Below are positions 4,370-30,492 of a stretch of 64,000 nucleotides of DNA, piece after piece. A model generated the notes under the pieces. It saw only the letters and a program-made list of their open reading frames with translations, did not search any database and was not told where the DNA came from. This DNA is from Chloroflexota bacterium (GTDB taxonomy: Bacteria; Chloroflexota; UBA5177): positions 2,095-66,094 of the forward strand of contig JBPCMQ010000004.1 in assembly GCA_051002135.1 (NCBI GenBank). Direction: 5' to 3'. The position numbers were made by a program, and so were the translations under genes. Within the stretch, counting starts at the first letter, position 1; each line of letters begins with the position of its first letter.

Positions 4370-4407
4370 CCGCCGTTCTGCCCCCGACCCAAAGTCTGCC
4401 GTAAAAG

Positions 4408-6018: not shown

Positions 6019-6132
6019 TGTCCATGACGGAGATCGTACGCGTCGCGTGCGTCTTCCCCTGCGACACGCACGGCCTGTCCATGACGGAGATCGTACGCGT
6101 CGCGTGCGTCTTCCCCTGCGACACGCACGGCC
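6019..6132. repeat. Near-perfect 57-bp tandem direct repeat, 2 copies
   Basis: 'tgtccatgacggagatcgtacgcgtcgcgtgcgtcttcccctgcgacacgcacggcc' occurs at 6019-6075 and again at 6076-6132. Each unit contains an imperfect internal inverted repeat. Confidence 0.9.
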
Positions 6133-6363
6133 ACGGGGGGTAACCTCTCACTCGCTTCAAACTGACGGTCGTATCTTGACACCTTCTATTTGTCAAGTGT
6201 TCGGCTCGACGTGCGCCGCTGGCTAAGTCGTGTCAAGCCTTGATGTGATCCCGTCTCTCACTCCGTCAATCTTTCCCATGTCAAGTTGACACGGGTACGT
6301 CTCTATGCATGGTCGTGGATTGAGCGACACTACATCAACTCACCTTCGGTGTGTCACTGAGGC

Positions 6364-6556
6364 CACGGGCGCTCGGTCCCACGGCCCGCACAGAGCCTCA
6401 GAGAGCCCGATTCATCGACCCACACGGGCACCCGGACGGCACGCCCCACGTCCTCGCGGACAGCACGGGCACTCGGTCCCACGGCCCACACGGGTCCATA
6501 AGAGCCCGATTCTACGATCCTCACGGGCACTCGGACGGCCCGGAAGTATTGACAGG
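6364..6556. repeat. Degenerate ~95-bp tandem duplication built of four 'CACGGGCRCYCGG...' half-units
   Basis: Units 6364-6463 and 6464-6556 align by eye ('cacgggcgctcggtcccacggcccgcaca...agagcccgattc...cacgggcacccggacggc'). The duplication ends in a perfect 9-bp-arm hairpin, GGAAGTATT-N8-AATACTTCC, at 6541-6566. Confidence 0.7.
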
Positions 6557-7107
6557 GTAATACTTCCATGCGATGAACGCAACATGAATCGGAGGGACAC
6601 TCGCCACCCCTCTAACAGGAGTACACCAACCATCGCCGGTGCGCCGCTGTTCTCGCTCTGTCAATCCTAGCAGGTCGCATGAAGTCTTGCTCTGTTCATG
6701 CTGCAGGCGGGCGTAGAGCGTGCCACAAGGCGCCCCTACCGTTTCGCAAGGAGTGCCCGATGGCAATTGCACAAATGGACCGCGGCACAAAATGTCAGCC
6801 GAAAGTCGTCCGACTGACGCCGAGCACACTTGACACGCTCGATATCATGGGGGACTGCCTGCTCAACTTCTCGTTGGAGCAGCGGCAGAGACAACAGCGC
6901 CGAGGCGGAGGTCCACCCGTGAGCTACGCGCTCGCGCTGGGAAACGCGGTGCACGAAACTGTCGCACAGATGAATCGTTTGCTCGCGGCCGGACGCCCCC
7001 TCCCGCCGCCCGTTCAAGAAGGTCGCGCCAGTGGCTTGATGGCATTGATTCGCAACATCCGGCGCGAGTCTGCCGGTCTTAGACGGACGAGAAGCCGTGT
7101 TGGCCGC

Positions 7108-9684: not shown

Positions 9685-9781
9685 ATGTTCGTACCTAAGT
9701 GCACGTACAAGGATCCTTGTTCGGAGAGAAGCTCATGGATAATCAGCAGTCTCTCATACATCATCTGCAGGTAGGAGTCTA

Positions 9782-12714: not shown

Positions 12715-12830
12715 GAGGTGCAGCTAGGGGAGCGCGTTTTTCGCGCTGAGAGTGTGGCTGAGGCCGCAGACCCTTGAACCTGATCCGGGTAATTCCGGCG
12801 TAGGGAAGACTCCAAGCGACTTTCCGCTCC
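12715..12830 (+). promoter_or_regulatory. TPP (THI-box) riboswitch
   Basis: 'ctaGGGGaGC...GCTGAGAgtgtggctgaggccgcagACCCTTGAACCTGATCCGGGTAATTCCGGCGTAGGGAAG' is a near-consensus THI element, sitting directly upstream of the 12841 operon. Confidence 0.85.
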
Positions 12831-12840
12831 CACCTGCGGT

Positions 12841-13932
12841 GTGAGCGGTTATTTTTTGGAGAGTCGTGTGCGGGGTGAGCTGAGACCGGCTGCCGGCAAG
12901 GTGTCGAGCTCGCTGTTCGAGCGGGTCATCAAGCCGTCGCTCGGCGCGGGTCGCCACGACGTCGTGGTGGGTCCGCGGTCTGGGGTCGATGTGGGCGTTC
13001 TCAATATTGGGAGCGGACAGGTCATGGTGCTGACCTGCGACCCGCTGTTTGTCATGCCGGCATACGGGTGGCGCCGCGCGGCCTGGTTCGCGGTTCATAT
13101 CGTTGCTTCAGACGCGGCGACGTCGGGTCTCTGCCCCAGCCTCTGCGCGATCGACCTGAATCTCCCTCTGGACATGACCGACGACGAGCTGGCCCTTTTA
13201 TGGGAGGGAATCCACGAGACCTGCCGGGACACCGGCGTCGCTATCGTAACCGGACACACCGGAAGGTACGAAGGGTGTGCGTACCCCATGCTGGGCGCGT
13301 GTACGATGATGAGCATCGGCTCCGCGGATGGATACGTGACGCCGGACATGGCCCGCGTTGGGGACGAGGTGGTCATCACCAAGGGTGCGGCCATCGAGAC
13401 GACGGGGCAGCTGGGCGTCGTTTTCGAACGTCGCATATGCGATGCTCTCGGTCCCGACGTTGCGCGTGAAGCCGCCGCGCTGTTTTTTCACATGTCCGTC
13501 GTGAAGGATGCGTCCATTGCCGCCGAGATTGGGGTACGCGACGCGGGCGTCACGGGCATGCACGATGCTACCGAGCGCGGTGTGTGGGGCGGGCTGGTGG
13601 AGATCGCGGAAGCAGCGGGGGTGGGATTGACGATCGATGGTGACGCCATTCCGGTTCGACCGGAGGTCGCTGCCGTTTGCGGTCTCTTCCGTATTGATCC
13701 GTTCACGGCGAGCAGCGAGGGGACGCTCCTCATCACCTGCCGGCCATCGAAGGCGGCATGCCTGGTCCAACGACTGCAAGATGAGGGAATCCAGGCCGCA
13801 CGCATTGGCGAGGTGCTGCCGCCGGAGTGTGGGCTGTCCGTGACACTCGAGGGCCGCGCCACTCGCTTGCAGTCTCCGGAGACGGATCCCTTCTGGCCCG
13901 CGTTCACGGCTGCCCTCGAGGAAAGCCGATGA
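12841..13932 (+). CDS. AIR synthase-related protein (PurM-like superfamily; HypE/ThiL-like fold), first gene of the TPP-riboswitch operon
   Basis: 'VHIVASDAATSGLCP' and 'GVAIVTGHTGRYEGC' match PurM-like N- and C-domain signatures. It lacks the SelD Cys/Sec loop. Confidence 0.7.
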   Translation: MSGYFLESRVRGELRPAAGKVSSSLFERVIKPSLGAGRHDVVVGPRSGVDVGVLNIGSGQVMVLTCDPLFVMPAYGWRRAAWFAVHIVASDAATSGLCPSLCAIDLNLPLDMTDDELALLWEGIHETCRDTGVAIVTGHTGRYEGCAYPMLGACTMMSIGSADGYVTPDMARVGDEVVITKGAAIETTGQLGVVFERRICDALGPDVAREAAALFFHMSVVKDASIAAEIGVRDAGVTGMHDATERGVWGGLVEIAEAAGVGLTIDGDAIPVRPEVAAVCGLFRIDPFTASSEGTLLITCRPSKAACLVQRLQDEGIQAARIGEVLPPECGLSVTLEGRATRLQSPETDPFWPAFTAALEESR

Positions 13933-14705
13933 AGCTCGAGGCGGCCGCGGTCTCGAAACACTTCCGCCTCGATGGCGGAACGCTCACCGCACTCGAGAAC
14001 GTATCTCTTTCGGTGCGTCCGGGAGAATTTGTCAGTCTTGTCGGGCCGAGCGGCTGCGGCAAGAGCACGCTCTTCAACATTCTGGCCGGGTTGGAGCTTC
14101 CGGACGGCGGCAACGTTCGTATCGACGGCATGGACGTGACGGGGCGCCTCGGTCTGGTCGCTTACATGCCGCAGAAGGATCTCCTGCTGCCGTGGAAGTC
14201 CGTGCTGGACAACACGGTTGTTGGCGCGCGGCTGAGGGGAATATCGAAGGCGGATGCGCGCCGGGAGGCTCTTGCCTGGTTCCATCGCTTCGGGCTACAG
14301 GGATTCGAGCGTTCCTACCCGGCAGCGCTTTCGGGAGGCATGCGGCAGCGAGCAGCGCTGCTCCGCACGCTGCTGTGCAGGCGGGAGATCCTGTTGCTCG
14401 ATGAGCCGTTTGGGGCGCTTGACGCTCTCACGCGCATCGACATGCAGACGTGGCTGGTTGACATACGCCGCGAGCTCGACAACACGATCGTGCTCATTAC
14501 CCATGACGTGGACGAGGCCATCTATTTGTCGGACAGGGTATTCGTCATGAGCTCTCGACCCGGACGCGTGCTCGCCGATGTACCGATCCTCGTCGAGCGA
14601 CGGGGTGAACACGAGGAGACCGCGACCTCACCGGCGTTTGTAGGGGTGAAGCGCGATCTTCTGCGTCTGTTACGTCCCAATGGGGCTCACGAGGAGGTAG
14701 CGTGA
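13929..14705 (+). CDS. ABC transporter ATP-binding protein, NitT/TauT family (ThiZ-like)
   Basis: Walker A 'GPSGCGKST'. Signature 'LSGGMRQR'. Walker B 'LLLDEPFGALD'. H-loop 'ITHD'. ATGA overlap with the upstream gene. Confidence 0.85.
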   Translation: MKLEAAAVSKHFRLDGGTLTALENVSLSVRPGEFVSLVGPSGCGKSTLFNILAGLELPDGGNVRIDGMDVTGRLGLVAYMPQKDLLLPWKSVLDNTVVGARLRGISKADARREALAWFHRFGLQGFERSYPAALSGGMRQRAALLRTLLCRREILLLDEPFGALDALTRIDMQTWLVDIRRELDNTIVLITHDVDEAIYLSDRVFVMSSRPGRVLADVPILVERRGEHEETATSPAFVGVKRDLLRLLRPNGAHEEVA

Positions 14706-15607
14706 GCAGAAGCCAATCTCGCGCCCCGTCCCGAAGGGTGGAGGCTGAGAAGATTCGCGGACATCGCCTGCTGCGGCTCGTCCCGCCGATTGCCCTGGTG
14801 GCCGCCGCGCTCTCGCTATGGGAGGCGGTGGTCGATATCCGCCACGTCCCGGATTACCTTTTGCCCGCGCCGTCCGAGATCTGGCGGACGACGCTCAGTG
14901 AGCGTGATCTCCTCTTCGTCAATACCCTCCCGACACTGGAGATTGCGGTTCTGGGTTTTTCTCTCGCCCTTGTGGCCGGTCTCGCCATCGCTCTTGCCAT
15001 TCACTTCTCGCGAGCGGTCGAGCTTGCGTTCTACCCGATGGTCATTGCGTCGCAGGCAGTCCCCGTGCTCGCACTCGCGCCCATCCTGGTGATTCTCATG
15101 GGATTCTCGATCTTCCCAAAGCTCGTGGTGGTGGCTCTGATCTGCTTCTTTCCCATCACGGTCAATGCCGTGGACGGGATGAAGAGCGTCGATCGCGATC
15201 TTGTCAACCTGATGCGGACGATGGGCGCCAACCGCTGGCACGTTCTGCGCGACGTGGAGCTTCCGACCGCGCTACCTTTCTTTTTCTCCGGCGCCAAGAT
15301 CGCGGTGACCTTCAGCGTCGTTGGATCGCTCTACGGGGACTGGGTCGGCGGCTCGTCAGGGAGCCTGGCGCTGGTGATCATACAGGCTCAGTCCCGGTTC
15401 GACACGGCGGTGCTGTTCTCGGCCATGGCCATCCTGACGATCATCGGCGTTGCGCTCTTCGCGCTGCTCTCTTTCGTGGAATGGCTTGCGATGCCGTGGC
15501 GCCGCGCCCAGCGCTTTCCCGCCGCGGGACATCAAGATCCAAAGACATCTGACCAGGGGGATGAGCGTGTCACGGACGGACAGAGGAACAGGGAGAGATA
15601 TGCGTAA
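14702..15607 (+). CDS. ABC transporter permease (BPD_transp_1; ThiX/SsuC-like)
   Basis: Six predicted TM helices. GTGA overlap with the ATPase gene. The C-terminal ~40 aa may be run-on sequence. Confidence 0.8.
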   Translation: MSRSQSRAPSRRVEAEKIRGHRLLRLVPPIALVAAALSLWEAVVDIRHVPDYLLPAPSEIWRTTLSERDLLFVNTLPTLEIAVLGFSLALVAGLAIALAIHFSRAVELAFYPMVIASQAVPVLALAPILVILMGFSIFPKLVVVALICFFPITVNAVDGMKSVDRDLVNLMRTMGANRWHVLRDVELPTALPFFFSGAKIAVTFSVVGSLYGDWVGGSSGSLALVIIQAQSRFDTAVLFSAMAILTIIGVALFALLSFVEWLAMPWRRAQRFPAAGHQDPKTSDQGDERVTDGQRNRERYA

Positions 15608-16619
15608 AACACAGCGAATCGGCGTAAGAGTCGTGCCGGTCCTGCTTGCGGGGTACCTCGCGCTCGGCGGCACAGCGGGCTTGGGACATGGCACCGCGGC
15701 CGGCCTCCAGCACGCGTCGATCGTGCTGGACTGGTATCCCAATTCCGATCATGGTGGTCTCTATACAGCTATCCGGCAGGGATTTTTCCGGAAAGCCGGA
15801 ATCGACATGACCGCTCGCGTGCCGTCCGATACCAGCGCGCAGATTCGACTCGTCGCTGCTGGGGCTGCCGACTTTGGCATTTCCTATGAAACCGATCTAC
15901 TGGCTGCCCGCGCGCACCGCATCCCGGTCCGTTCGGTGATGTGCATCATGCAGCACCCTCTCGACACCGTCATGACGTTACGAACCTCCGGCATCACGCG
16001 TCCGCGCCGGCTCGCCGGCCACAGCGTCGGCATGGCCGGATCTCCCAGCGATGAGCCCATCGTCAGTGCCATGATGACGCACGACGGCTCGTCCATCGGT
16101 CGGGCGCACATGGTGAATGTCGGCTACAACCTCTTGCCGGCGTTGCTGAGCAAGAAGGTAGACGCCATCGTGGGCGTGTACTGGACGTGGGAGGCAATTC
16201 AGGCGCGGCAGCGCGGCTACGCGGTCAACGTCATGCGCGTGGAGCGCTGGGGCGTGCCCAACTACTGTGAGCTGGTGCTGGTGGTGAGCGAGCGGACGAT
16301 ACGAACGCGGCCCGGGTTTGTCCGGGCGACCGTGCAGGCGCTGCAGAAAGGCTATAGGTTGGCCGAAGCGCGTCCGGAGATTGCCGTACGGAGCCTGTCC
16401 GTCGCGGACAGGACGTACTCCAAGGGGCGGAACAAGGCTCTCGTGCTCGAGAGCATACGTCTCCTGCGCTCGGTCGTGGGAAGTGCCCGGACAATCGGAT
16501 ACCAAAGTCCGCCGCAGTGGCGTCACTATGCCGGCTGGTTGGCCAGGAACAAGCTGATTGACGGACGAGTGGATGCCCGCGCCGCCTTTACCAATCAGTT
16601 TCTGGGTCAGATTCGATGA
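15600..16619 (+). CDS. NMT1/THI5-like periplasmic substrate-binding protein (ThiY-like, pyrimidine-precursor binding)
   Basis: Signal peptide 'RIGVRVVPVLLAGYLALGG'. 'LDWYPNSDHGGLYTAIRQGFFRKAGIDM' is characteristic of the NMT1/THI5 family. Confidence 0.8.
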   Translation: MRKTQRIGVRVVPVLLAGYLALGGTAGLGHGTAAGLQHASIVLDWYPNSDHGGLYTAIRQGFFRKAGIDMTARVPSDTSAQIRLVAAGAADFGISYETDLLAARAHRIPVRSVMCIMQHPLDTVMTLRTSGITRPRRLAGHSVGMAGSPSDEPIVSAMMTHDGSSIGRAHMVNVGYNLLPALLSKKVDAIVGVYWTWEAIQARQRGYAVNVMRVERWGVPNYCELVLVVSERTIRTRPGFVRATVQALQKGYRLAEARPEIAVRSLSVADRTYSKGRNKALVLESIRLLRSVVGSARTIGYQSPPQWRHYAGWLARNKLIDGRVDARAAFTNQFLGQIR

Positions 16620-17536: not shown

Positions 17537-19405
17537 CTACCTCCTGATCAAGAACGATCCGAATGTCTTGGCCGTCTGCAGACCCCTCCACAGCTGGAAG
17601 TGGACGTACACCCTCCTGGAGAATCGATTCGTTGCTCCGTAAGGAATGCGGAACTGCTTCGTCCAGTGTCCGGTTGAGTCTGTCCGGGTTCGGTAATCGT
17701 AGTGCCGGCCCGTGGGGAAATTGATGTGCACCCAGATGATCGTAACCGCCGCCACGTTTGCCTGCGCATCTATGCGATTCTTTTCGCCGGCTCGAACCGT
17801 GTGACGCTGCGTGCGCACGTAGACGAAGCCGATGTGGGGAGGAACGGGCGTCGCCGTCGGGGTGGGCGTGTTCGTCGGGATCGGCGTGGCACTGGGCGTT
17901 GGCGTGGACGTCGGAGTCGGCGGCACTCCCTGGATCGTGAGCGTGGTCGTCGTGGTGACGCCGATCGAAGCCTGACTGGCCGTGACGGCCACCGAGCTCG
18001 ACGTCGCGCCCGCGGGAATCGTGAGCGCGGTGAGGATCACGCCCGAGGCATCCGGTTGCGTTGTCGCCGAGATCGTCTGAACGCCGCCATTGACGGTCAC
18101 TTGAGCCGCGACCGTCACCGGTGTGCCGGGAAGGAACCCACTACCCGAGACCGCGACCGCGTTCCCGGGAGTGACAGTCGATGGCGTGAGGACCAGCGCG
18201 GGATTGAGGTTGGCCACGTTGAGCTTGGTGCTGGCGGTGAGCGTGCCGGTGGTGGTGGTCTGAGTGGCAACGACCGTGACGCTGTTGGAGGCGGAGTTCG
18301 CGGGAATCGGCAATGCAACCGAGAATGCGCCGTTATTGTCGGTGGCGGCGTTTACCTGAACCGTCTGGACGGTGCCGTCCTTCTGTGGGACCTGGGCGCT
18401 GATGGTTACCGTCGCGTTCGGCGCGAAGAATTGCCCGGTGATGGTGGCGCTTCCGCCCGCTCCCGCCGTGGCCGGTGAAACCGTGATTGACGATGCCGAG
18501 GTGACCGTGAGCTGTCCGGTTGCGGTGCGGTGTGAGCTTTCGCCGGTTGCCGTGACCGTGTACTTACCCGGGACGACGTTCGGCAGAACGTAGAGCAAGA
18601 CGTTGGCTAGGGCGCCGGCCTGATCGCCCGTGCCCGATCCGATCACCTGTTGCGTGCCGCCGCTGGTGAGGTTCGCGGTGTAGGAGACATCGATCCTTTC
18701 TCCCGGCAGGAAGTTCGTCCCGGACGCCGTGAAGGTCGTGTAGGCGCCGGCAGGCACCGAAGACGGTGTGAGAACGAGGCTGGTGGCCTGGCCAACCGTC
18801 AGCGTGCCGGTCTGGACGACGCCGCTGCCCTGTAGGAATCGAACCGCGTAGGTGGAGCTGACGGCCGTGGCCGGCACCGCCAGGGTTGTCGCGAAACCAC
18901 CATTGCCACCAACTTGAACTGCCTGGTTTACGGGTTGCGTGCCTCCGCCCGCCAGATTGAAGGTGACGGATAACGTGAGAACGACGTTGGGCGCGAAGCC
19001 CGAGCCGCCGACGGTCACCGTTCCTCCCGGCCCTACCGACGAGGGGGTGAAGGACACCTGAGGATTTCCCACCTGCAGGATAGCCATCGCGGAGATTCCG
19101 GCGCAGATCCCGGTGACGGTGTAAGTCCCGGATTGGGTCCCGGTCGGGATCGACACCGTAATCGAAAACCTGCCGGAGGGGTCGCTGCTGACATTCGACC
19201 CGACGAACTGCGGACTGGTGTTGATCGTAATTGAGCACGGCTGTGATGCGGGGAAGTTCACTCCGATCACGGTCACCGGACCGCCTGGGGCAACCACCGC
19301 GCTCGACAGCGACAGCGCCGGTGCCCCCACTCCGCTTGGCGCCGCCCTCGCTACCTGCCACGGGATCACCAGCGCGGCCAGCGCAATGACAAAAACTCTC
19401 TTCAT
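17537..19405 (-). CDS. Secreted cell-surface protein with multiple Ig-like (Big/IPT-type) repeats and a PT-rich linker
   Basis: Signal peptide 'MKRVFVIALAALVIPWQVARA'. Repeated ~90-aa beta-rich modules. 'TPTSTPTPSATPIPTNTPTPTATP' linker followed by a C-terminal domain. Confidence 0.7.
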   Translation of the reverse strand: MKRVFVIALAALVIPWQVARAAPSGVGAPALSLSSAVVAPGGPVTVIGVNFPASQPCSITINTSPQFVGSNVSSDPSGRFSITVSIPTGTQSGTYTVTGICAGISAMAILQVGNPQVSFTPSSVGPGGTVTVGGSGFAPNVVLTLSVTFNLAGGGTQPVNQAVQVGGNGGFATTLAVPATAVSSTYAVRFLQGSGVVQTGTLTVGQATSLVLTPSSVPAGAYTTFTASGTNFLPGERIDVSYTANLTSGGTQQVIGSGTGDQAGALANVLLYVLPNVVPGKYTVTATGESSHRTATGQLTVTSASSITVSPATAGAGGSATITGQFFAPNATVTISAQVPQKDGTVQTVQVNAATDNNGAFSVALPIPANSASNSVTVVATQTTTTGTLTASTKLNVANLNPALVLTPSTVTPGNAVAVSGSGFLPGTPVTVAAQVTVNGGVQTISATTQPDASGVILTALTIPAGATSSSVAVTASQASIGVTTTTTLTIQGVPPTPTSTPTPSATPIPTNTPTPTATPVPPHIGFVYVRTQRHTVRAGEKNRIDAQANVAAVTIIWVHINFPTGRHYDYRTRTDSTGHWTKQFRIPYGATNRFSRRVYVHFQLWRGLQTAKTFGSFLIRR

Positions 19406-19659
19406 CCTCCACCCCTCTCCTACAACTCGATGAATGCCCATCAATCCATGAACGCTGCAGGCAGGGCAATTGTAACCAGCCAATTCGATGAATTTTGGGA
19501 TGTTTTGCTATAGGCAGCTCGGGGGCAGGCTACACGTCCCCAAGTCAAGAGGCGAGTCGATCAGAACATCGACGCGAGCGCGTCCGGAGAAGTGGCAGCG
19601 CATGTCGCTCGATAGTGAATCGGAGAGAGACACCGACTTAACTCCATATTCATCGTTGT

Positions 19660-20778
19660 TTGTCGCATTGCCCGCGAGCCTTCGGGAATCGTATCACCGT
19701 GTGGCACGCGCTCGACGAGGCAGAAGCACGGCCCCACGGGCCGGCTCGCATAAGGGTAGATATTGGGACAGATGTGCAGAGAAAAACGCCGAGTACCGGC
19801 GGTGTGAAAGTGAACGCGAGTGTAGGTCGTGTGGTCACCCTCCGGCTGTCCCCTTTCAGCGAAGTAGCGTTCAGTGGATGCCCCGGAACGCGCCTCAACG
19901 TGCGCGACCAGACGACGAGTATCACGCCGAGCGGCGGATCGAGCGTGAACATGGCGTACCTCGACAGCAGCCAGACACGCCGCACGGCCGCCGGCGGCCT
20001 CTCGTATCAGGATGACAGCATCGGCGTGAGCACGATCACCGGCGCCATGACCCCCGCCGGTTCCGGCGGCTCGCTGTCCGCCACGTATTCGACGAACGGC
20101 CAGCCCATGTCCCTGGCGGCGGATGGAACCGCGACGTTCCAGGTGACTCTGACGAACACGGGAACCAGCACGTGGGCGGCAGGAGGACCGACCCCGTACC
20201 ACCTTCGCATCGCCTTCGAGCCGTCGACCTGCAACGACATCCCAGTTACCATCACCGCGCCGGCGACCACGGGCGGCATGAAGCTCGTGTTCCAGATGGT
20301 TCACGAGGGCTACGCCTTCTTTCCGCAATAGCTCGATTCGTCCGTCTCGGTGGCGGGAGGCGGGCTCGCGGCGTCGTACGCCATTAGCGGGCAGCTCACC
20401 AGCGCCTCACCGGGACAGACCGCGAGCTATCAAATCACCGTCACGAACAAGGGGACGAGCACCTGGTCCGCGGGCGGGGCGAACCCGGTGCACCTGCGCA
20501 TCGCGGCAGCGCTCAGCATGACGACCGTCCCCAAAGGCACTCTGGTCAGCGATCAAGGGTACGCGCTCCCCGCAGACGTTGTGCCCGGGCAGAGCGTCAC
20601 GCTCTCCGTGTCCATGCCCATGCCGAGCAGCACGGGTGCCTACGCCCTGATCCATCAGATGGTGGAGGAGGGAGTCGTCTCCTTCTCACAGTATATCAGG
20701 AGAGATCCTGCTTCCCGTCGGACTTGCGGAATCCAGGGGCGGTACCAATCATCGAGTGTTCCCCTCGACGGTATCTAG
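19660..20778 (+). pseudogene. Tandem two-domain Ig-like (NBR1-like) protein interrupted by an in-frame TAG at 20329-20331
   Basis: Domain 1 '...TLTNTGTSTWAAGGPTPYHLRIA...QMVHEGYAFFPQ*' and domain 2 'LDSS...TVTNKGTSTWSAGGANPVHLRIA...QMVEEGVVSFSQY' are in the same frame. The TAG sits where the paralogous domain has Tyr. Confidence 0.5.
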
Positions 20779-20830: not shown

Positions 20831-21799
20831 CTAACCGGAGACAGCCGCCGAGATCACCGGGTTGATCATCGAGCTCCAGCGGAACTCGGATTGGGATTCG
20901 GGCCTCTTCAAGGCACACTCGATGGCGAAGTTGGCGAGGTGCTCCACCACCCATTCGAACCTGTCGGGCCCGATGGATGCACGATCGGAGTCCGGTGCCG
21001 GATTGAGAAAGTCGATGGCCACGGGAATGCGGTCGCGAATGGCGAACTCGACGGTGTTCATGTCGTATCCGAGGGCTCGATTCAGGGTCAGCACGTCGCG
21101 AATGATCCGCTCGCGCAGCTCCTCGTCGATGCCTTCAAACCCGTCGACATACCTTTCCGCATGCGGCAGGGAATGGTCGTAGCGCGAGATCAGCACGTTA
21201 TTCTGTCCGACGCAATAGCACCGCACGTAGTTCTCGAACTCGATCTTCTCCTGGAGGATCATCAAGAGCTGATTGCTGCGGCCGTACGCCTCCTCCAGCT
21301 CTTGTACCGAGTGGACGATCGAGATGTTCTTGTTGCCGCCACCGATAGCGGGCTTGAGCACGGCGGGCGACCCCGTGTAATCGAGCATGTCCTCCCAGGG
21401 CATGGGGTAGACGATGTTCCGCAACGACTCCTCCCGGCTGATGTCCGGCGGAAACTCACTCGAGGGCAAGACGATCGTCCGTGGGATCGCCACGCCGAGA
21501 TCCTGCGCCAGGACGCACTCGAAGAATTTGTCGTCGGCGGACCACCAGAAGGGGTTGTTGATCACAGTGCAGCCATCGGCCACGGCCTTCTTGCAATAGG
21601 CGCGATAGTAGCATACTTCGTGCGATATGCGGTCGAGAATGACGCTATAGGGGATTCTCTCGTCCGTGCGTGTGCCACCGTGCAGACGCACAAACTCCGC
21701 CGTCACGCCCTCGACTCTCTTGCTGTTGACACGATCGATGAAGGCGTCCGGAAACGTGTTTTCTTTGCCAACCAGCAGCCCTATCTTTGTCACGTGCAC
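20831..21799 (-). CDS. ATP-grasp ligase, RimK/GshB-like
   Basis: N-terminal pre-ATP-grasp region. 'PAVLKPAIGGGNKNISIVHS' ATP-binding loop. 'LMILQEKIEFENYVRCYCVG' motif. Confidence 0.8.
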   Translation of the reverse strand: MHVTKIGLLVGKENTFPDAFIDRVNSKRVEGVTAEFVRLHGGTRTDERIPYSVILDRISHEVCYYRAYCKKAVADGCTVINNPFWWSADDKFFECVLAQDLGVAIPRTIVLPSSEFPPDISREESLRNIVYPMPWEDMLDYTGSPAVLKPAIGGGNKNISIVHSVQELEEAYGRSNQLLMILQEKIEFENYVRCYCVGQNNVLISRYDHSLPHAERYVDGFEGIDEELRERIIRDVLTLNRALGYDMNTVEFAIRDRIPVAIDFLNPAPDSDRASIGPDRFEWVVEHLANFAIECALKRPESQSEFRWSSMINPVISAAVSG

Positions 21800-21833
21800 T
21801 CCTCTTACGGCGAGCTACGCCTCGCATGGCGAG

Positions 21834-22967
21834 TCACGCCTTGGCTGATGTTTCGTGAACCGTGGACCCGCGCATGGTCTCATCCGCTAGGTAGTCGACC
21901 ACCGCGTGGAGGCTTCCTGTCCGCCTGTAGACTTCGAGCTGCCGGTCCGCACCGGTTCCCTCGTTCAGAATTTGATACACCGTTTGTAGCGCATCGCGGC
22001 TGCCCAGCTCGTCGACGACGTCGTCGATGAATTCCAGGAGTTCCAGAGCGAGGCTTCGCATGGGGACCTCCGTGCTCTTGCCCAGGTCGATCAGGTCACC
22101 GTCCACCCCGTAGCGGATGGCACGCCAGCGATTCTCCTGAATCAGCGCGCGCTGATACACACGGAACCCCAAGTTTTGCGATCGCAGACGGGCCAGCTTC
22201 ATCACCACGGCCTGGAAGAGCGCGGCGATCGCGATCGTCTCCTCGACGCGGGTAGGCATGTCGCAGACCCGAAACTCCAGTGTGTTGAAGCGGGGGTGGG
22301 GACGTATGTCCCACCAGATCTTTTTGGGCTCGTCGATGGAGTTGGTCGCCAGCAGCGTGTTCACAAAATGTGTGTAATCGTCCCACGACTGAAAGGTGTC
22401 CGGGATGCCCGACCGCGGCATACGACCCCAGATGATCGAGCGGTATGACTTCAGGCCCGTGTCTCTTCCCTCCCAGAACGGAGAGTTGACGGAGAGGGCG
22501 AGAATGTGAGGCAAAAAGTACCTGATCTCATTCATGATCTCGATGGACTGGTCACGGTCGTCGATGCCGACATGCACATGCAGGCCGTACACGGCGATGG
22601 AGCGCGCGATCTGCTGCAGATGGTTCTCCAGCTGCGCGTAGCGCTCGTCCTGGGTCACGTCCAGCGTGTCCCACCTGGCAAACGGGTGGGCGCCGGATGC
22701 GGCGACCCGACAACCAGCCCGACGGGCCAGCTCGATAACTGTTCCTCGCAGGCGGCAAATTTCGGTCTTCGCCTCCACGACGTCCGTGCAGACCACGGTC
22801 CCAACCTCAATCATGGCCTGGAACATCTCTTTTTGAATCTGCTCGCCCAGAATGCTCTCACCGTTCGCGAGAATCTGAGTAATCGAGGAGCGCAGATCCC
22901 TGGTCTCCGGGTCGACGAGCTGGTATTCCTCTTCGATGCCCACGGTAAATTGCGATTGCCTGTGCAT
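21834..22967 (-). CDS. Carboxylate-amine ligase, YbdK / glutamate-cysteine ligase family 2 (GCS2)
   Basis: 'FTVGIEEEYQLVD' N-terminal signature, 'GLHVHVG', and 'WWDIRPHPRFNTLEFRVCD' GCS2 motifs. Confidence 0.85.
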   Translation of the reverse strand: MHRQSQFTVGIEEEYQLVDPETRDLRSSITQILANGESILGEQIQKEMFQAMIEVGTVVCTDVVEAKTEICRLRGTVIELARRAGCRVAASGAHPFARWDTLDVTQDERYAQLENHLQQIARSIAVYGLHVHVGIDDRDQSIEIMNEIRYFLPHILALSVNSPFWEGRDTGLKSYRSIIWGRMPRSGIPDTFQSWDDYTHFVNTLLATNSIDEPKKIWWDIRPHPRFNTLEFRVCDMPTRVEETIAIAALFQAVVMKLARLRSQNLGFRVYQRALIQENRWRAIRYGVDGDLIDLGKSTEVPMRSLALELLEFIDDVVDELGSRDALQTVYQILNEGTGADRQLEVYRRTGSLHAVVDYLADETMRGSTVHETSAKA

Positions 22968-22975
22968 CGGTCCTC

Positions 22976-24361
22976 CTACTCGGCCACGAACGTGGGGGTC
23001 GTGCTGCCGGTCCCGGCCGACACATTGAGCAGGGCGCTACCGGAGACGCGGGTCAGAATGCCGCCCAGGCGGTTTCGGAAGAGAAGCGGGTCGGCATCGA
23101 CGAGAAGAGGGACGAATTCCAGGCGGCCATCTATCCATACCGGAAAATCGGAGTGCGGCACGGGTACCCGCTCTTGCAGCACATAGTGACCCTGCATAGC
23201 CGTCTCCAGAGCGGCGCGCCACGGCTCCTCGCTGCTCTCCCATCCCAGTACGACGCCCTTTCCGCCGTACTCGTCCGACGGCTTCAACGCCATCGTTTCA
23301 CGCTCGGCCACCGCCAGTTCGAGGATGTCCCGCCTTTGCCCGTCGTACGTCGTTTCCCCGGCAACCACACATCTCGTCCAGGGAATGACTCGGTCGACGA
23401 GTGCACGTTGTTCGGCGGTCATGTCGATGCCGGCTTCCGGATCGCTGAGCAGCGCGAACAGCGCCTTCTTGTGCAAGAGCTTCGATCGCGGCGAATTCAC
23501 CATGCAGATGGCGCCTTCGCGATAGGCAGTGAGTAGCGGCTGCACCTCATCCCCGCGTTCGAGCAGCTCGTGAAGCAACACGCGTCGATACGCCAGCGTG
23601 ATGCGTCGATCTTCAAGCCAGACCGATCCTCCCTCGTAGCGGAGCTGTCGGGGGTCACAGATCACCGTGGGGATGCCCTGGCCGCGAAAGTAGTCGGCGC
23701 AGAGCTCGAAGTCGCGTTTTGTGATCACTGTGTCCCAGTCGATAATGGCAATGGCCGGCGTATCCGTCCCGCCCCACTCGGAGTACGCCCAGAGCAGAAC
23801 GTCCAGCAGAGCGCGCCGGGTCTCATACCGAGTCAGTCCTCCGGCGTGGTCCCAACCGGACACGGCCGGAAGCTCCAGGAAGATCTGCGAAAGGCAATCG
23901 CAAAAACCGATGCTGGCGGGGCTCTCCGCGTTGTACTCTACAAACCTTGGACCGTCGTCACCCATGAACGAATCGAGCCGCGACGTCGCGCTGAAGCCGG
24001 GGTACCCCGGATCGACCCCCCATAGATTCCGTTCCTGCTCGCTTGCACCCATCCGATCCAGCAAGCGGTCGTCGGAGAGAATTTGCTCTCCCGCTTGCAC
24101 GCAGAGCACCGCGACCAGCTCGGCGATGGAGGCCAGCATGTCGACGGTCTCGTGCGTCAAGAGACGTGGCCGCAATACATTGCATAGCATGCGTTCTCGA
24201 ATGTAAAGGCCATGTGTGCGGTGCGCTTCCACCAACGCTCGATGCGTGGCTTCGGCGAGAGCGCTGTCATTTCGCAGACGCGCGTGATACGACTCCACCA
24301 CGGGAGCCTCAGTCTCCGTATCGGTGTCGTACGCCCGTTGGGGCACACGGCTGCCTACCAT
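22976..24361 (-). CDS. Circularly permuted ATP-grasp type 2 protein (DUF404/DUF407 amidoligase)
   Basis: 461 aa. 'LLHKKALFALLSDP...' and 'ALKPSDEYGGKGVVLGWE' are characteristic of CP-ATP-grasp_2. Lies 8 bp upstream of the GCS2 gene. Confidence 0.75.
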   Translation of the reverse strand: MVGSRVPQRAYDTDTETEAPVVESYHARLRNDSALAEATHRALVEAHRTHGLYIRERMLCNVLRPRLLTHETVDMLASIAELVAVLCVQAGEQILSDDRLLDRMGASEQERNLWGVDPGYPGFSATSRLDSFMGDDGPRFVEYNAESPASIGFCDCLSQIFLELPAVSGWDHAGGLTRYETRRALLDVLLWAYSEWGGTDTPAIAIIDWDTVITKRDFELCADYFRGQGIPTVICDPRQLRYEGGSVWLEDRRITLAYRRVLLHELLERGDEVQPLLTAYREGAICMVNSPRSKLLHKKALFALLSDPEAGIDMTAEQRALVDRVIPWTRCVVAGETTYDGQRRDILELAVAERETMALKPSDEYGGKGVVLGWESSEEPWRAALETAMQGHYVLQERVPVPHSDFPVWIDGRLEFVPLLVDADPLLFRNRLGGILTRVSGSALLNVSAGTGSTTPTFVAE

Positions 24362-24459
24362 GCTGCGCCTCTCCGCCCCTACAGTTGCCTACAGTCTAGC
24401 CTACGCACATGGCCATTGAGCCTCTCCGCGTCGCCCTCATACGTCGTTTTAGCGAGCCG

Positions 24460-25065
24460 TCAACGGTCCGGTTCGCGCTCCAGCAGTCCCACGATCTGGA
24501 ACCACGCCGGCGTTGGCTCGGGGTTACGCAGCACTCGCATTTTCAGCTTGCGCATCACCGCGATCGAGGCGGCGTTTGTGTACTCAGTCGTGGCCACGAT
24601 GCGCCCGAGGTTGAGCTCCCCGAAAGCGAATTCGATGAGCGCTCTTGCGGCCTCTGTCGCGAAGCCGCGAGTCTGCGCTTCCGGGTCGAGGGCCCAGTAC
24701 AGCCCCACTTCAGGGAATCGATAATGGGATCCTTGATTGACGGGGAAGCCCGCCAGCTGGCCGAACGGTCCCATCGCAGGCACCAGTCCGACACTGCCGA
24801 TCAGCCGGCCGTCTTCCATGAGCACGACGGCGCGGTCCCCGTACGGTGGTTGGGTCAGGGCCGCAAGCTCGCCGTAATTGGCCACTGTCCACCGGAGCCA
24901 CCGCTCGCGCGCCGGAAGATTGTCTTCCTGTTTGTGAGAGGACACGCCCCACGCGTTCGACAGCACTCGGTGTACCGACTCCAGGTCCTCCATCACAAAA
25001 GGCCGAATCAGCAGGCGTTCGGTGCGGAGCCGAGGCATTGCGGTGGGCATGGTGCACGATATCAT
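24460..25065 (-). CDS. GNAT N-acetyltransferase, RimJ/RimL-like (Acetyltransf_3)
   Basis: 'RTERLLIRPFVMEDLESVHRVLSN' N-terminal motif. 'VLMEDGRLIGSVGL', 'IGYALDPEAQTRGFATEAARALIEFAF'. Start codon is ambiguous (25065, 25050 or 25038). Confidence 0.75.
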   Translation of the reverse strand: MISCTMPTAMPRLRTERLLIRPFVMEDLESVHRVLSNAWGVSSHKQEDNLPARERWLRWTVANYGELAALTQPPYGDRAVVLMEDGRLIGSVGLVPAMGPFGQLAGFPVNQGSHYRFPEVGLYWALDPEAQTRGFATEAARALIEFAFGELNLGRIVATTEYTNAASIAVMRKLKMRVLRNPEPTPAWFQIVGLLEREPDR

Positions 25066-25202
25066 CCGCTTCGGTCAGGTCAGCCGGATCGACAGAAGAC
25101 CCCGCCGCTTCTCGTGAGTGCGCCCTGGAACCTGGATTGCGCGCCGCGCTCACTCACGGCTACTCTTATACCTGCAGCTGTCCGAACGTTCGAGGTCCTG
25201 GA

Positions 25203-26276
25203 TTGCGGTTTCTCGCCGTTTGCCTTGCTCTGATCGCGCTCTCGGTAATTCCCGTCTTGGCTCAGTCCGTACCGGCCTCTCATCCATCCATGACGATCAC
25301 CAGCGGAGGAGGGGACTACCGGTCCCCGCATGAGGTCGTCGTCGATGGCGTGCAGCCGGGCAGCCGCCAAATGCTTGTTCTCTTCGATCCTGACGGCCAG
25401 CAGACGATTTTTCAGGCGCAGACCGCCGTTACCGGGCATGCGACCTGGACGCTCAACCCTCCCAACGGCCAATGGATTCTGGGTCTCTACCGCCTGGTGC
25501 TTCCGCTAGGGGAGGGACGCGCGATCAGCGAAACGTTCGTGTCCGGCGATCATCAAGCGCACCTCTTCGCGGAACCCTTCTTGCCGTCGCCGACTTCAGT
25601 CTTCGACTTCGTCGGCATCGGCTTGACGCCTGACACATCGGTGACCCTGGATCTGGTGCTGACCGCGGGACAGGGTGAACATCTCTTGCAGACGGTGACC
25701 GATGCGTCCGGGTCTTTCTCGCTCTTTGTCTGGCCGCAGCAGTTCGGTTTGCCATTTTTCGCGGCCGGGGACTACCTGGTACAGGTCCCGACAATCAAGC
25801 CGGGCACGGAATTTCGCGTACGCGAACATCCGGGAAGCTCGAGCCTCTCTGTTGATGGGCCGGTCGTCAAAGGCCTGGATGCAACTCTGCACCTTCGCGG
25901 ATACCAGGCGGATCGCCTTGTGTGGGGCATGTATGCCGGCCTGCACGGAGACGCCTCGGGTGAGTTCTTGGTGGGCCCGACCAGCGGAGCCGGCTCGCTG
26001 GACACGTCCGTCGCACTGACGCTGCCCGGCCCCGGCCAATATTTGATCGGCAGCCCAATTGACTGGGGGGAGACATCTTTCGAAGCCATAGAGCCGACCG
26101 CGACCGCGACCGCGACGCCTCCGCCCACGCCGGCGGTGACCCCGAGTGCGATCGCGCCTACCCCGACGGCGACCGCGCCGTCTCGCCTACGACGAGCACG
26201 TGCACTTTTTGCCCCTCACGGACCTCGTAGCCTTGGCCCTTCACCCGGTCAACTCTTCCGCCAGGATACGTCGTGA
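25203..26276 (+). CDS. Secreted hypothetical protein with a PT-rich C-terminal tail
   Basis: Putative TTG start giving signal peptide '(M)RFLAVCLALIALSVIPVLAQS'. The portion upstream of 25203 in the ORF track overlaps the GNAT gene and is likely spurious. The 3' end is uncertain. Confidence 0.5.
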   Translation: MRFLAVCLALIALSVIPVLAQSVPASHPSMTITSGGGDYRSPHEVVVDGVQPGSRQMLVLFDPDGQQTIFQAQTAVTGHATWTLNPPNGQWILGLYRLVLPLGEGRAISETFVSGDHQAHLFAEPFLPSPTSVFDFVGIGLTPDTSVTLDLVLTAGQGEHLLQTVTDASGSFSLFVWPQQFGLPFFAAGDYLVQVPTIKPGTEFRVREHPGSSSLSVDGPVVKGLDATLHLRGYQADRLVWGMYAGLHGDASGEFLVGPTSGAGSLDTSVALTLPGPGQYLIGSPIDWGETSFEAIEPTATATATPPPTPAVTPSAIAPTPTATAPSRLRRARALFAPHGPRSLGPSPGQLFRQDTS

Positions 26277-27583: not shown

Positions 27584-27877
27584 CTACTGGCCGGCCACCA
27601 CGTAGACCGTCTCCGCTCCTAGCCGCTCTGCTGCGTAGCCCAGCGTGGCCCGCACCTGCTCCTCGGTTAGAGCGTAGGCTTCCATGATGGACTCGATGCT
27701 CTCGCCTCCCGCCAATTGCCCCACAATAAGCCGTGCAGGAATGCGGGTTCCCTTGATGACCGGCATCCCGTGAACGACACGTGAGTCCACAACCACACCC
27801 GGATACACCTCTGCCGCGTTGTCGGGCTCTTCCACGTTGTCCTCCCTTGTCCCACACGACGGCGTCGCCTTACTCAC
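27584..27877 (-). CDS. DUF433 domain protein (antitoxin-like DNA-binding)
   Basis: 'VVHGMPVIKGTRIPARLI...ESIESIMEAYALTEEQVRATLGYA' is the DUF433 signature. Confidence 0.6.
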   Translation of the reverse strand: MSKATPSCGTREDNVEEPDNAAEVYPGVVVDSRVVHGMPVIKGTRIPARLIVGQLAGGESIESIMEAYALTEEQVRATLGYAAERLGAETVYVVAGQ

Positions 27878-27893
27878 TGCTACTCGCCGCCGA

Positions 27894-28516
27894 CTATCCG
27901 CTTCGCGAGCAGAACTGATTCTTCGGCGAGGCCAAGCGCCCGCACCGCACTCGTCTCATCGAATATCTCCCAACCTGAAACGATAGGAGGCTTCCTCGTT
28001 TTTCAGGGGTCTTCCCGATCTTCTCCCACGTCATGACCCACGGACCTCGAGGTTGTGTCTTCCACCTCCAGACATCACCTGCCGGCGTACGGTCCCGGTA
28101 GAGGCCCGCCTCCTTGATTAACCGCCGCAGGTGGAGGAGGCGCTTCGCTGCGTAACCGGTCGGGTCGAAGAGGGCCTGACCATCTACAGCGATATCCAGA
28201 TACAACGAAGGGAGATGGGACTCGAATTCTTGCCGCGTGCGGGCGATCATCGACGGCAGGGTATGGCAGGTGAACAACAGGTGATGCAAGAACAGTTGCC
28301 GGTCAAAGTAATTTTCTTGCAACCCTTCAGCGATGAGCAGCAGGTCCCAGTCGCTCTCGTCCTGCTCTTCGCCGCGCGCGTGCGATCCAAACAGGACCAC
28401 CGCGACCAGGCGCTCGCCGAGGGCCGCATGCAATGCTCGGATGGTCTGCTGTGGCACCTCGCGCTCGAGACCGAGAGTCTGAGCCATGCTGTTTCCTTTC
28501 AGGAGATCTGCCATGC
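27894..28516 (-). CDS. Nucleotidyltransferase domain protein (Pol-beta superfamily, MNT-like)
   Basis: 'VVLFGSHARGEEQDESDWDLLLIAEG' is the minimal NTase GS...D.D motif. The C-terminal ~60 aa look like run-on sequence. Confidence 0.6.
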
Positions 28517-28643
28517 TCCGCCTGACGGAGGCCGCAAGCGCTTCTGGGGCTGGTTCATCGGGCCCCCTGGGGAATCCTACGTACACCCTGCCCTGTCTTG
28601 CTCACATCGAATCGACTTAGTGTCCTGAGAGGCCTGAAAGAGA

Positions 28644-28733
28644 TGGCGGAGAGGGTGGGATTCGAACCCACGAAGCGTTGCCGCTTACGGCATTTCCAGT
28701 GCCGCGCCCTAGGCCAGACTAGGCGACCTCTCC
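28644..28733 (-). tRNA. tRNA-Ser (anticodon GGA)
   Basis: Cloverleaf 'GGAGAGGTCGCCTAGTCTGG...CTGGAAA...long variable arm...GGGTTCGAATCCCACCCTCTCCGCCA', with the CCA encoded. Confidence 0.85.
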
Positions 28734-30417: not shown

Positions 30418-30492
30418 GGTAGCGGGGGTTGGATTCGAACCAACGACCTCCGGGTTATGAGCCCGACGAGCTGCCACTGCTCTACCCCGCGG
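30418..30492 (-). tRNA. tRNA-Met (anticodon CAT), initiator-like
   Basis: 'CGCGGGGTAGAGCAGTGG...TCGGGCTCATAACCCGG...GGTTCGAATCCAACCCCCGCTACCA'. Three consecutive G-C pairs in the anticodon stem. Position 1:72 is unpaired (C1 opposite U72). Confidence 0.85.

Follow-up and report, generated by a model that had tools for sequence, protein, structure and literature searches.

The window analysed here is a 64-kb stretch of DNA from a soil Chloroflexota genome, in which four ORFs, all on the minus strand, occupy positions 20831-25065. From the upstream end, the locus comprises the following features:

24460..25065, minus strand: GNAT, a RimJ/RimL-type N-acetyltransferase (PF13302, E = 3.3e-22)
24362..24459, minus strand: 98-bp spacer between the GNAT and CP-ATP-grasp genes, with the putative promoter and ribosome-binding site of the ligase operon
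22976..24361, minus strand: circularly permuted (CP) ATP-grasp ligase, 461 aa, opening the conserved ligase operon
21834..22967, minus strand: GCS2/YbdK-family carboxylate-amine ligase, 377 aa (PF04107, E = 1.8e-66)
20831..21793/21799, minus strand: classical (non-permuted) ATP-grasp ligase, 320-322 aa (AF2 model and Foldseek)

A preliminary description had placed a GNAT and three different carboxylate-amine ligases, in close spacing, at these coordinates, and was correct as to positions, gaps and domain calls. The intergenic gaps measured 98 bp (GNAT to CP-ATP-grasp), 8 bp (CP-ATP-grasp to GCS2) and 34 bp (GCS2 to classical ATP-grasp), the last becoming 40 bp if the GTG at 21793 is taken as the start. 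Judging from the sequence, this GTG is likely the true start: AGGAG lies 5 nt ahead of it, and an NCBI protein of identical sequence (100%) has a length of 320 aa. The four ORFs showed a codon bias of coding type (GC3 of 0.74-0.81 versus GC2 of 0.39-0.48). A homologue search with the GNAT, the CP-ATP-grasp and the classical ATP-grasp returned hundreds of homologues for each (E < 1e-50); the GCS2 gene was supported by full-length family-model matches and by tblastn matches of 50-75% identity in 55 related loci.

Gene order was compared across 80 related genome loci, 60 of which had adequate flanks. The CP-ATP-grasp gene was adjoined by GCS2 in 55 of the 80 loci and by the classical ATP-grasp in 62; both partners were found beside it in 38 of the 60 well-flanked loci, and all were co-directional. 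The gap between the CP-ATP-grasp and GCS2 genes had an estimated median of 8 bp, and in one locus (L081) the two genes, as called, overlapped by 4 bp. In the window this junction reads TAG-GAGGA-CCG-ATG, the stop codon abutting the SD sequence, an arrangement which suggests that GCS2 is translationally coupled to the CP-ATP-grasp gene. The triad loci came from MAGs labelled as about ten phyla, including Chloroflexota (cultured Herpetosiphon included), Dormibacterota, Vulcanimicrobiota, Acidobacteriota and Gemmatimonadota. Since the three-ligase arrangement recurred in 38 of the 60 loci and over this range of labels, it is far beyond chance. The conserved unit consists of the three ligases only, CP-ATP-grasp, GCS2/YbdK and classical ATP-grasp; the neighbourhood comparison proposed in the preliminary description revealed a co-directional, tightly spaced module, with no transporter or regulator inside it, as had been noted. 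In 10 of the 60 loci (about 17%), the CP-grasp had neither partner or occurred in other contexts, such as beside a glycosyltransferase, a different GNAT (L031) or a STAND-like NTPase, which indicates that it is not bound to one pathway.

The GNAT is a lineage-specific, upstream chance neighbour, outside the conserved ligase operon. Its membership of the RimJ/RimL-type family was clear (PF13302, Acetyltransf_3; 80.1 bits, cutoff 25.4), and weak partial matches to bleomycin and spermidine N-acetyltransferases were detected. These matches, its co-directional position, separated from the ligases by 98 bp that hold no terminator-like hairpin, and, in the distant locus L031, the occurrence of another GNAT immediately before the CP-grasp would be compatible with a unit of four genes whose GNAT N-acetylates the peptide or amine product of the three ligases, as in N-acetylated dipeptide osmolytes or self-resistance acetylation. 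However, this GNAT was found beside the ligase unit in none of the 80 related loci, and close orthologues of the window GNAT (65-69% identity) resided in three unrelated, non-ligase neighbourhoods. In the nearest syntenic relatives, its position was either empty or taken by M32 peptidase and FmdA genes, and the GNAT of L031 belonged to another family, in a locus without GCS2 and a second ATP-grasp. We consider a four-gene unit very unlikely.

The 98-bp spacer contained an SD sequence as well as the direct repeat ACTGTAGG(CA)ACTGTAGG; a simple scan of it found neither a sigma-70 consensus nor a terminator. In the closest relatives (L002, L003, L005 and L007), a -10-like GGCATAAT preceded the CP-grasp start by 20-30 nt, which suggests that the operon starts there. 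The spacer at 24362..24459 therefore probably holds the ligase operon's own ribosome-binding site and promoter, the latter being a prediction. Given the absence of linkage in the 80 loci, the unrelated contexts of the orthologues and the position of GGCATAAT, both the framing of the locus as a four-gene cassette and the N-acetylation step that had been proposed with it were dropped.

The CP-ATP-grasp belongs to the structural class of GspS, YgiC and the eukaryotic glutathione synthetases. Its fold and its conserved Mg/ATP residues are those of the circularly permuted ATP-grasp superfamily (GspS, eukaryotic glutathione synthetase, CP_ATPgrasp_1 and _2), and its top Foldseek matches were eukaryotic glutathione synthetases. 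The sole Pfam match was to PF14403 (CP_ATPgrasp_2), with 21.2 bits, under the gathering threshold of 32 bits; triad relatives, including those of Roseiflexus and Herpetosiphon, scored 20.8-30.6 bits, apart from one (P0074) at 41.5 bits. As this threshold is missed by the window protein and by most CP-grasps of the triads, the clade lies at the edge of the curated family. PF03738 gave no match in the window protein and sub-threshold matches in relatives (17.8-22.7 versus 29.3 bits). The ATP-grasp catalytic residues were invariant in both the CP and the classical family. In a distant relative, four to five tandem CP-grasp domains were fused to NRPS C-T-TE domains, which indicates that the CP-grasp domain is in use for small-molecule assembly.

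The GCS2 protein gave full-length HMM matches above the curated cutoffs of its family, with PF04107 (224.9 bits, cutoff 21), the 'carboxylate-amine ligase' model NF010039 (516 bits, cutoff 371) and TIGR02050 (314 bits, cutoff 176), and it matched E. coli YbdK (1r8g) with an E-value of 2e-50. YbdK itself is a weak gamma-Glu-Cys ligase; the GCS2 family also includes true gamma-Glu-Cys ligases, namely haloarchaeal GshA and EgtA. The latter, together with the glutathione synthetases at the top of the CP-grasp Foldseek results, would agree with housekeeping glutathione synthesis, in which GCS2 acts as GshA, one ATP-grasp acts as GshB and the other genes are incidental. Compared with glutathione and homoglutathione synthesis by a gamma-Glu-Cys ligase and a CP glutathione synthetase, however, the window CP-grasp is only 11-15% identical to glutathione synthetase and has no Pfam or NCBIfam match to it, the operon has a conserved third ligase, and GCS2 is of the YbdK type. 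GCS2 fell below the cutoff of every GshA equivalog model: NF010043 (381 versus 409 bits), NF010042 (284 versus 427), TIGR02048 (63 versus 249) and TIGR01436 (25 versus 463). We judge plain glutathione synthesis to be improbable. The preliminary description had seen the logic of this pathway in the pairing of GCS2 with a GshB-like ATP-grasp; the parallel stands, but the enzyme resembling glutathione synthetase and GspS is the CP-ATP-grasp, not the fourth protein.

The classical ATP-grasp gave sub-threshold sequence matches throughout. It missed the cutoffs of the RimK, bacterial GshB and LysX family HMMs by a wide margin (TIGR00768 rimK_fam, 32 versus 143 bits; TIGR02144, LysX, 24 versus 276 bits), with ATP-grasp_3 at 19 bits and no GSH-S_ATP match. 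Profile searches had been suggested for all four proteins; those for GCS2 and Acetyltransf_3 were above cutoff, whereas CP_ATPgrasp_2 and RimK stayed below. The AF2 model (pLDDT 88.9) matched best, by Foldseek, LysX/ArgX, Ddl, RimK and microviridin ligases (E of about 1e-13, TM of 0.6-0.68), and the family profile aligned with the ATP sites of Ddl and biotin carboxylase (E = 1e-8). Invariant residues of the family include K149, G153-G155, E251, D263 and N266, so that the ATP/Mg motif of RimK, LysX/ArgX and Ddl is kept. On the basis of this model, the protein is assigned to the general classical ATP-grasp fold only, with no narrower RimK, GshB or LysX membership.

LysW-bound LysX/ArgX, RimK and RiPP macrocyclases were among its best structural matches, and the Pup ligase is a member of the GCS2 superfamily. 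Both would be in line with protein or peptide tagging, whether of a C-terminus or side chain (as in RimK/S6, LysX/LysW or PafA/Pup) or of a ribosomal precursor peptide. ORFs of 25-95 aa from the 80 loci and the window were clustered, and no conserved small ORF, whether a RiPP precursor or a LysW- or Pup-like carrier, was detected within 2 kb of the triad, consistent with the earlier report of no precursor-peptide ORF; recurring clusters were mostly alternative-frame or opposite-strand ORFs within a neighbouring esterase gene, plus low-complexity matches. Unlike RimK and LysX, the triad has no S6- or LysW-like substrate gene nearby; moreover, no Pup_ligase or RiPP-recognition domain was matched by the window proteins, and the partners found elsewhere are small-peptide hydrolases (C26, M29, M32, oxoprolinase-like) rather than proteasome or chaperone genes. 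Tagging thus appears unlikely, and a substrate protein or peptide whose gene lies elsewhere may be an alternative to free small-peptide assembly.

These recurrent partners had been overlooked in the preliminary description. The commonest was an esterase-family alpha/beta-hydrolase (41 of the 80 loci), followed in fewer loci by a gamma-glutamyl-hydrolase-like Peptidase_C26 (5 loci), an M29 peptidase after GCS2 (five loci without the second ATP-grasp), an M32 peptidase upstream (3 loci and L081-L083) and a hydantoinase/oxoprolinase-like gene after the CP-grasp (5 loci). All were absent from the 64-kb window, where tblastn found no esterase homologue (best E = 0.84). In the Vulcanimicrobiota, UBP9 and Riflebacteria loci, the CP-grasp followed an AAA/TPR (STAND-like) protein of roughly 1,170 aa, as might be expected of a conflict or defence effector system instead of a metabolic one. 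This association was nevertheless confined to a few lineages, the window locus lies among housekeeping genes and has a normal composition, and the PADLOC anti-phage models gave zero matches to the four window proteins and the esterase partner; a role in defence is highly improbable.

The observations above concern the anatomy of the genes, their folds, the conservation of catalytic motifs and operon structure, and the recurrent partners. As to function, we lean towards a reading in which the triad, independently of ribosomes and NRPS, makes a small peptide or a peptide-amine conjugate in the cytoplasm via successive ATP-dependent acyl-phosphate ligations. By analogy with characterised enzymes, the product is probably a gamma-glutamyl-type, glutathione-like small peptide. 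The carboxylate activated by GCS2 would most likely be the gamma-carboxyl group of glutamate, and the enzyme would couple it with a second amino acid through the amino group of the latter, as characterised members of its family do. The CP-ATP-grasp would then activate the C-terminal carboxylate of this product and join it to a further amino acid or polyamine, since most of its characterised structural neighbours (glutathione/homoglutathione synthetases, GspS, TryS, YgiC/YjfC) do so. The LysX/RimK/Ddl-like ATP-grasp might add another residue or pre-form a dipeptide building block. In other genomes, the alpha/beta-hydrolase, the C26, M29 and M32 peptidases and the oxoprolinase-like protein may trim, recycle or proof-read the product.

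Several points run against peptide assembly, namely the lack of hydrolase partners in the window, the sub-cutoff scores of GCS2 in the GshA equivalog models, the weak gamma-Glu-Cys ligase activity of YbdK, the loose link between fold and specificity, and the CP-grasps that have neither partner or occur in other contexts. A more specific proposal, which we regard as doubtful, is that the triad is a route to an undescribed gamma-glutamyl thiol of low molecular weight, or to a conjugate of peptide and polyamine, like glutathione, glutathionylspermidine or trypanothione. If this is true, Chloroflexota, Dormibacterota, Vulcanimicrobiota (Eremiobacterota) and related phyla of soil would use the compound as their redox or stress buffer; no account of the major thiols in these groups was found in the searchable literature.

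Among the structural neighbours of the CP-ATP-grasp, YgiC and YjfC of E. coli are reported to be peptide-spermidine ligases (Pederick et al. 2023, as cited in PMC12568646). In contrast to these and to the GspS/trypanothione synthetases, the window protein has no N-terminal CHAP amidase domain and has other genomic partners. Cp1B (PDB 9cjn), a ligase of the fungal E-64 pathway, couples an epoxysuccinate warhead, a diacid, to an amino acid (PMC12568646). It differs from the window protein in being eukaryotic, in this warhead and in having no GCS2 partner. Fold similarity does not fix specificity, as the substrate of Cp1B is a diacid and not a gamma-glutamyl peptide.

The closest parallel to the operon as a whole lies in the peptide-synthesis neighbourhoods of the type 'CP-ATP-grasp type 2 + GCS2-like ligase + alpha/beta-hydrolase peptidase', which Iyer, Abhiman, Burroughs and Aravind reportedly predicted in silico in Mol Biosyst in 2009, and on which Pfam PF14403 is presumably based. 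We found no biochemical characterisation of CP-ATP-grasp/GCS2 neighbourhoods in the searchable literature, in agreement with the preliminary description. The operon and these predicted neighbourhoods differ in that the classical ATP-grasp is a near-constant extra partner here (62 of the 80 loci), and in that the window has no associated alpha/beta-hydrolase or other peptidase/amidohydrolase and a CP-grasp below the PF14403 threshold. They share a CP-ATP-grasp next to a GCS2-like COOH-NH2 ligase (8 bp apart in the window), commonly with an esterase-family alpha/beta-hydrolase, including in the Roseiflexus loci L021 and L024, and a predicted function in small-peptide synthesis. The window operon belongs to this already predicted, uncharacterised kind of ligase neighbourhood.

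The locus comprised four ORFs, listed here from the upstream end:

24460-25065, minus strand, RimJ/RimL-type acetyltransferase (GNAT), 201 aa
22976-24361, minus strand, predicted circularly permuted ATP-grasp (CP-grasp), 461 aa
21834-22967, minus strand, GCS2/YbdK-family protein (GCS2), 377 aa
20831-21799, minus strand, classical ATP-grasp (second ATP-grasp), 322 aa

All four exhibited coding-type codon bias (GC3 0.74-0.81, GC2 0.39-0.48), with intergenic gaps of 98 bp between the GNAT and the CP-grasp, 8 bp between the CP-grasp and GCS2, and 34 bp between GCS2 and the second ATP-grasp. At the CP-grasp/GCS2 junction, the stop codon was directly followed by the GGAGGA-CCG-ATG of GCS2. Judging from the sequence, the GTG at 21793 is a likelier start for the second ATP-grasp than 21799; an AGGAG motif lies 5 nt upstream of this GTG, and an NCBI protein of 100% identity has 320 aa. 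The unit was bounded downstream by a convergent plus-strand gene (20350-20778) and upstream, beyond the GNAT, by a divergent secreted-protein gene with a start near 25190. No riboswitch or leader was detected near the cassette by an Rfam scan, and a promoter and terminator scan there gave nothing above shuffled expectation.

The cassette was located in an ordinary chromosomal region, whose genes include HtrA, tRNAs, glycine-cleavage genes, and, behind a TPP riboswitch, thiL-like and ABC transporter genes. The best homologues of the window proteins were Chloroflexota MAG proteins; a haloarchaeal origin was rejected on this ground and because the proteins were not strongly acidic. The riboswitch (12716-12823, plus strand; RF00059, 67.4 bits) was directly followed by four plus-strand genes (12841-16619), encoding an AIR-synthase-related (ThiL-like) protein, an ABC ATPase, a permease, and an NMT1/THI5-like binding protein; together, they probably form a thiamine or thiamine-precursor salvage operon. 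A restriction/helicase-type gene cluster (1670-11503), with a GC content of 0.53-0.57 versus about 0.62 elsewhere, may be a degraded defence island, and included:

1670-4369, plus strand, ResIII and RE_endonuc
7108-9633, minus strand, RE_endonuc and Schlafen AlbA_2
9893-11503, plus strand, ORF in which a type I R subunit is represented by its domain-3 and C-terminal parts alone

Several secreted repeat proteins, low in charge and rich in Thr/Ser/Gly, with linkers of Pro-Thr and weak Ig-like matches (N_BRCA1_IG, DUF11, AglB_L1), were encoded on both sides of the ligase operon:

17537-19483, minus strand, repeat-protein gene
19660-20331, plus strand, repeat-protein gene
20350-20778, plus strand, repeat-protein gene
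about 25190-26276, plus strand, repeat-protein gene

In the nearest relatives, a homologue of the last of these proteins (cluster C11 in our grouping of neighbouring genes) was conserved upstream of the operon, in divergent orientation. A DUF433 gene adjoining a Pol-beta-type nucleotidyltransferase gene (27584-28586, minus strand) possibly forms a toxin-antitoxin-like pair, beyond which lay two minus-strand tRNA genes (28647-28733 and 30420-30491).

The GNAT was assigned to Acetyltransf_3 (E 3.3e-22), and GCS2 to PF04107 (E 1.8e-66) and to the NCBIfam 'carboxylate-amine ligase' model NF010039 (516 bits versus a cutoff of 371). GCS2 matched E. coli YbdK at E 2e-50 and scored below the cutoff of every NCBIfam glutamate-cysteine-ligase equivalog model. 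The sole profile match of the CP-grasp was sub-threshold (PF14403, 21.2 bits versus 32), with no match in NCBIfam. Its AF2 model, built from 19 homologues (pLDDT 90.6), resembled eukaryotic glutathione and homoglutathione synthetases in Foldseek (E 5e-18 to 1e-15, TM 0.65-0.72), with further matches to 3n6x, Cp1B, YgiC/YjfC, GspS, and TryS; because of these structural matches, the 461-aa protein belongs to the circularly permuted ATP-grasp class. Family-invariant, catalytic-looking residues were E142/N144, K360-x-x-D-x-Y-G-G, Q396, R398, D422, and N446, with E397 nearly invariant. The second ATP-grasp gave only weak RimK/ATP-grasp_3 sequence matches, and its model (pLDDT 88.9) resembled LysX/ArgX, Ddl, RimK, and microviridin ligases; K149, the G153-G155 loop, E251, D263, and N266 were invariant. 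Some of its homologues carried C-terminal extensions of about 80 aa, which were disordered low-complexity tails, so that additional domains were rejected. The profile and fold assignments thus bear out the three different ATP-dependent ligases and the GNAT of the preliminary description. A glutathione-synthetase-like enzyme, which it had placed in the fourth gene, is indeed present beside GCS2, but as the CP-grasp (GS/GspS-like). In L085 (GCA_036790605.1, DAIQJF010000224.1, 1092-2149), a locus in another assembly, apparently of the same organism, the fourth gene was 100% identical to that of the window and GCS2, intact in the window, was called as two fragments of 146 and 195 aa, owing either to a frameshift in the assembly or to a pseudogene at strain level.

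Scanning the CP-grasp alignment against one genome per GTDB species yielded 560 relatives, and the presence of partners was determined in the best 80 of these 560 loci by tblastn with the window proteins. GCS2 was co-directional and adjacent in 55 of the 80 loci and the second ATP-grasp was adjacent in 62; among the 60 loci flanked on each side by 2.5 kb or more, 38 contained both, so that the three ligases do hold together as a neighbourhood, as had been proposed. The order second ATP-grasp, CP-grasp, GCS2 was observed in 38 loci, and the order CP-grasp, GCS2, second ATP-grasp, that of the window and its nearest relatives, in 9; the median CP-grasp-to-GCS2 gap was estimated at 8 bp. Source labels, which need caution for MAGs, included Chloroflexota, Dormibacterota, Vulcanimicrobiota, Acidobacteriota, Gemmatimonadota, Sericytochromatia, and Eisenbacteria, among others. 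The Chloroflexota loci included the cultured Herpetosiphon giganteus (strain DSM 589, locus L011) and H. llansteffanensis, as well as Roseiflexus and Kouleothrix. The CP-grasp family comprised 1,207 clusters (50% identity, E<=1e-30). Most triad CP-grasps, including that of Roseiflexus, fell just below the PF14403 threshold, and the clade is therefore marginal to the curated family.

The GNAT, previously counted as a member of the cassette, did not share this conservation: a GNAT of the window type was found in none of the best 80 of 560 loci, and its orthologues (65-69% identity) occupied three different neighbourhoods, all devoid of ligases. The closest syntenic relatives shared the order PRC, HtrA, secreted protein, ligases, VTT-domain gene, with the GNAT position either empty or occupied by M32 peptidase and FmdA genes. 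In four of these relatives (L002, L003, L005, and L007), the CP-grasp start was preceded, at about 20-30 nt, by a conserved GGCATAAT, which resembles an extended -10 element. Because of its absence from the 80 loci, the ligase-free contexts of its orthologues, the empty or otherwise occupied position in syntenic relatives, and the GGCATAAT upstream of the CP-grasp, the GNAT is a lineage-specific neighbour of the ligase unit. Co-transcription with the ligases is possible, with no support from conservation, and a four-gene unit with an N-acetylated product is very unlikely, as the linkage is not conserved; dropping the GNAT from the model avoids a misleading hunt for such a product. At the equivalent place, the window spacer (24362-24459) contained the direct repeat ACTGTAGG-CA-ACTGTAGG, a possible operator. 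In a Roseiflexaceae MAG (L031, 7012-7890, plus strand), a 292-aa GNAT of a different family (Acetyltransf_1) was found 20 bp upstream of a CP-grasp lacking both GCS2 and the second ATP-grasp, an independent GNAT/CP-grasp pairing.

The recurrent additional genes encoded hydrolases acting on small peptides or amides. These were an esterase-family alpha/beta-hydrolase (41 of the 80 loci, including 28 of the 38 full-triad loci), Peptidase_C26 of the gamma-glutamyl-hydrolase/PuuD-like family (5 loci), Peptidase_M29 directly 3' of GCS2 (5 loci, all without the second ATP-grasp), Peptidase_M32 upstream (3 loci, and the related loci L081-L083), and a hydantoinase/oxoprolinase-family gene directly after the CP-grasp (5 Vulcanimicrobiota loci without GCS2). 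None of these partners was present in the window. The best match of the esterase among PDB sequences, S-formylglutathione hydrolase, was insignificant (E 0.011). A search for small ORFs within 2 kb of the unit found none that was conserved, in agreement with the earlier remark that no precursor-peptide ORF adjoins it; it returned low-complexity matches and, for the most part, ORFs lying within the adjacent esterase gene in another frame or on the other strand. Tagging of a protein or precursor peptide by the ligases, with a substrate possibly encoded elsewhere, is unlikely given the lack of a conserved substrate ORF and the small-peptide hydrolases as partners.

A distinct architecture was formed by a STAND-like AAA/TPR protein of about 1,170 aa and the CP-grasp. 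In Vulcanimicrobiota (L044, L045, L046, L053, and L055), this protein was followed by the esterase, an ATP-grasp, the CP-grasp, and the hydantoinase/oxoprolinase-family gene, without GCS2; in UBP9/Riflebacteria MAGs (L051, L062, L068, and L073), it directly preceded the CP-grasp, after which came genes for a GHMP kinase and a ComEA-like protein. This lineage-restricted association is the one argument for a defence system, which we regard as highly improbable; PADLOC models gave no matches for the four window proteins or the esterase. In a predicted metagenomic protein of 3,684 aa (P0410), NRPS condensation, PCP, and thioesterase domains preceded 4-5 tandem CP-ATP-grasp-like domains, 29-35% identical to the window CP-grasp; the protein may be a hybrid of NRPS and ATP-grasp assembly line, or else an artefact of gene calling.

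Iyer et al. (2009) reportedly predicted such a neighbourhood type in silico, a prediction that underlies Pfam PF14403, and we found no experimental characterisation of a CP-grasp/GCS2/ATP-grasp system in the searchable literature. The window operon is a further member of this already predicted and uncharacterised kind. The 'carboxylate-amine ligases' of pseudouridimycin were rejected as GCS2 relatives, as they are ATP-grasp enzymes. What is added here is the removal of the GNAT from the unit, the identification of the CP-grasp, instead of the fourth gene, as the GS/GspS-like enzyme, a catalogue of hydrolase partners, and the identification of culturable hosts. A three-ligase operon conserved across many poorly studied soil phyla is a concrete, testable 'known unknown', and its occurrence in cultured Herpetosiphon strains (loci L011 and L013) could make the product directly identifiable by thiol/peptide metabolomics and in vitro reconstitution.

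On balance, the triad probably makes a small peptide or peptide-amine metabolite by three sequential ligations, whose substrates, order, and product we infer. GCS2 and the CP-grasp would perform a two-step gamma-glutamyl-peptide assembly, to which the LysX/RimK/Ddl-like ligase would then contribute one further ligation; this core seems the most economical because of the very tight GCS2/CP-grasp pairing and the gamma-glutamyl-type hydrolase partners. That the product would be a new glutathione-like thiol or a peptide-polyamine buffer is conceivable, if rather doubtful. Characterised GCS2-family enzymes (YbdK, haloarchaeal GshA, and EgtA) make gamma-glutamyl amide bonds. To our knowledge, all characterised enzymes of the CP-grasp structural class act on a small acid or a peptide, convert its carboxylate to an acyl-phosphate, and join this to an amine. 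Glutathione and homoglutathione synthetases join gamma-Glu-Cys to Gly or beta-Ala, and GspS, TryS, and YgiC/YjfC join spermidine to glutathione or other peptides. Cp1B joins epoxysuccinate to an amino acid (PMC12568646). According to its model, the CP-grasp shares its fold class with glutathione, glutathionylspermidine, and trypanothione synthetases, and the presence of this fold in the neighbour of GCS2 narrows the chemistry to the assembly of a gamma-glutamyl peptide or peptide-amine.
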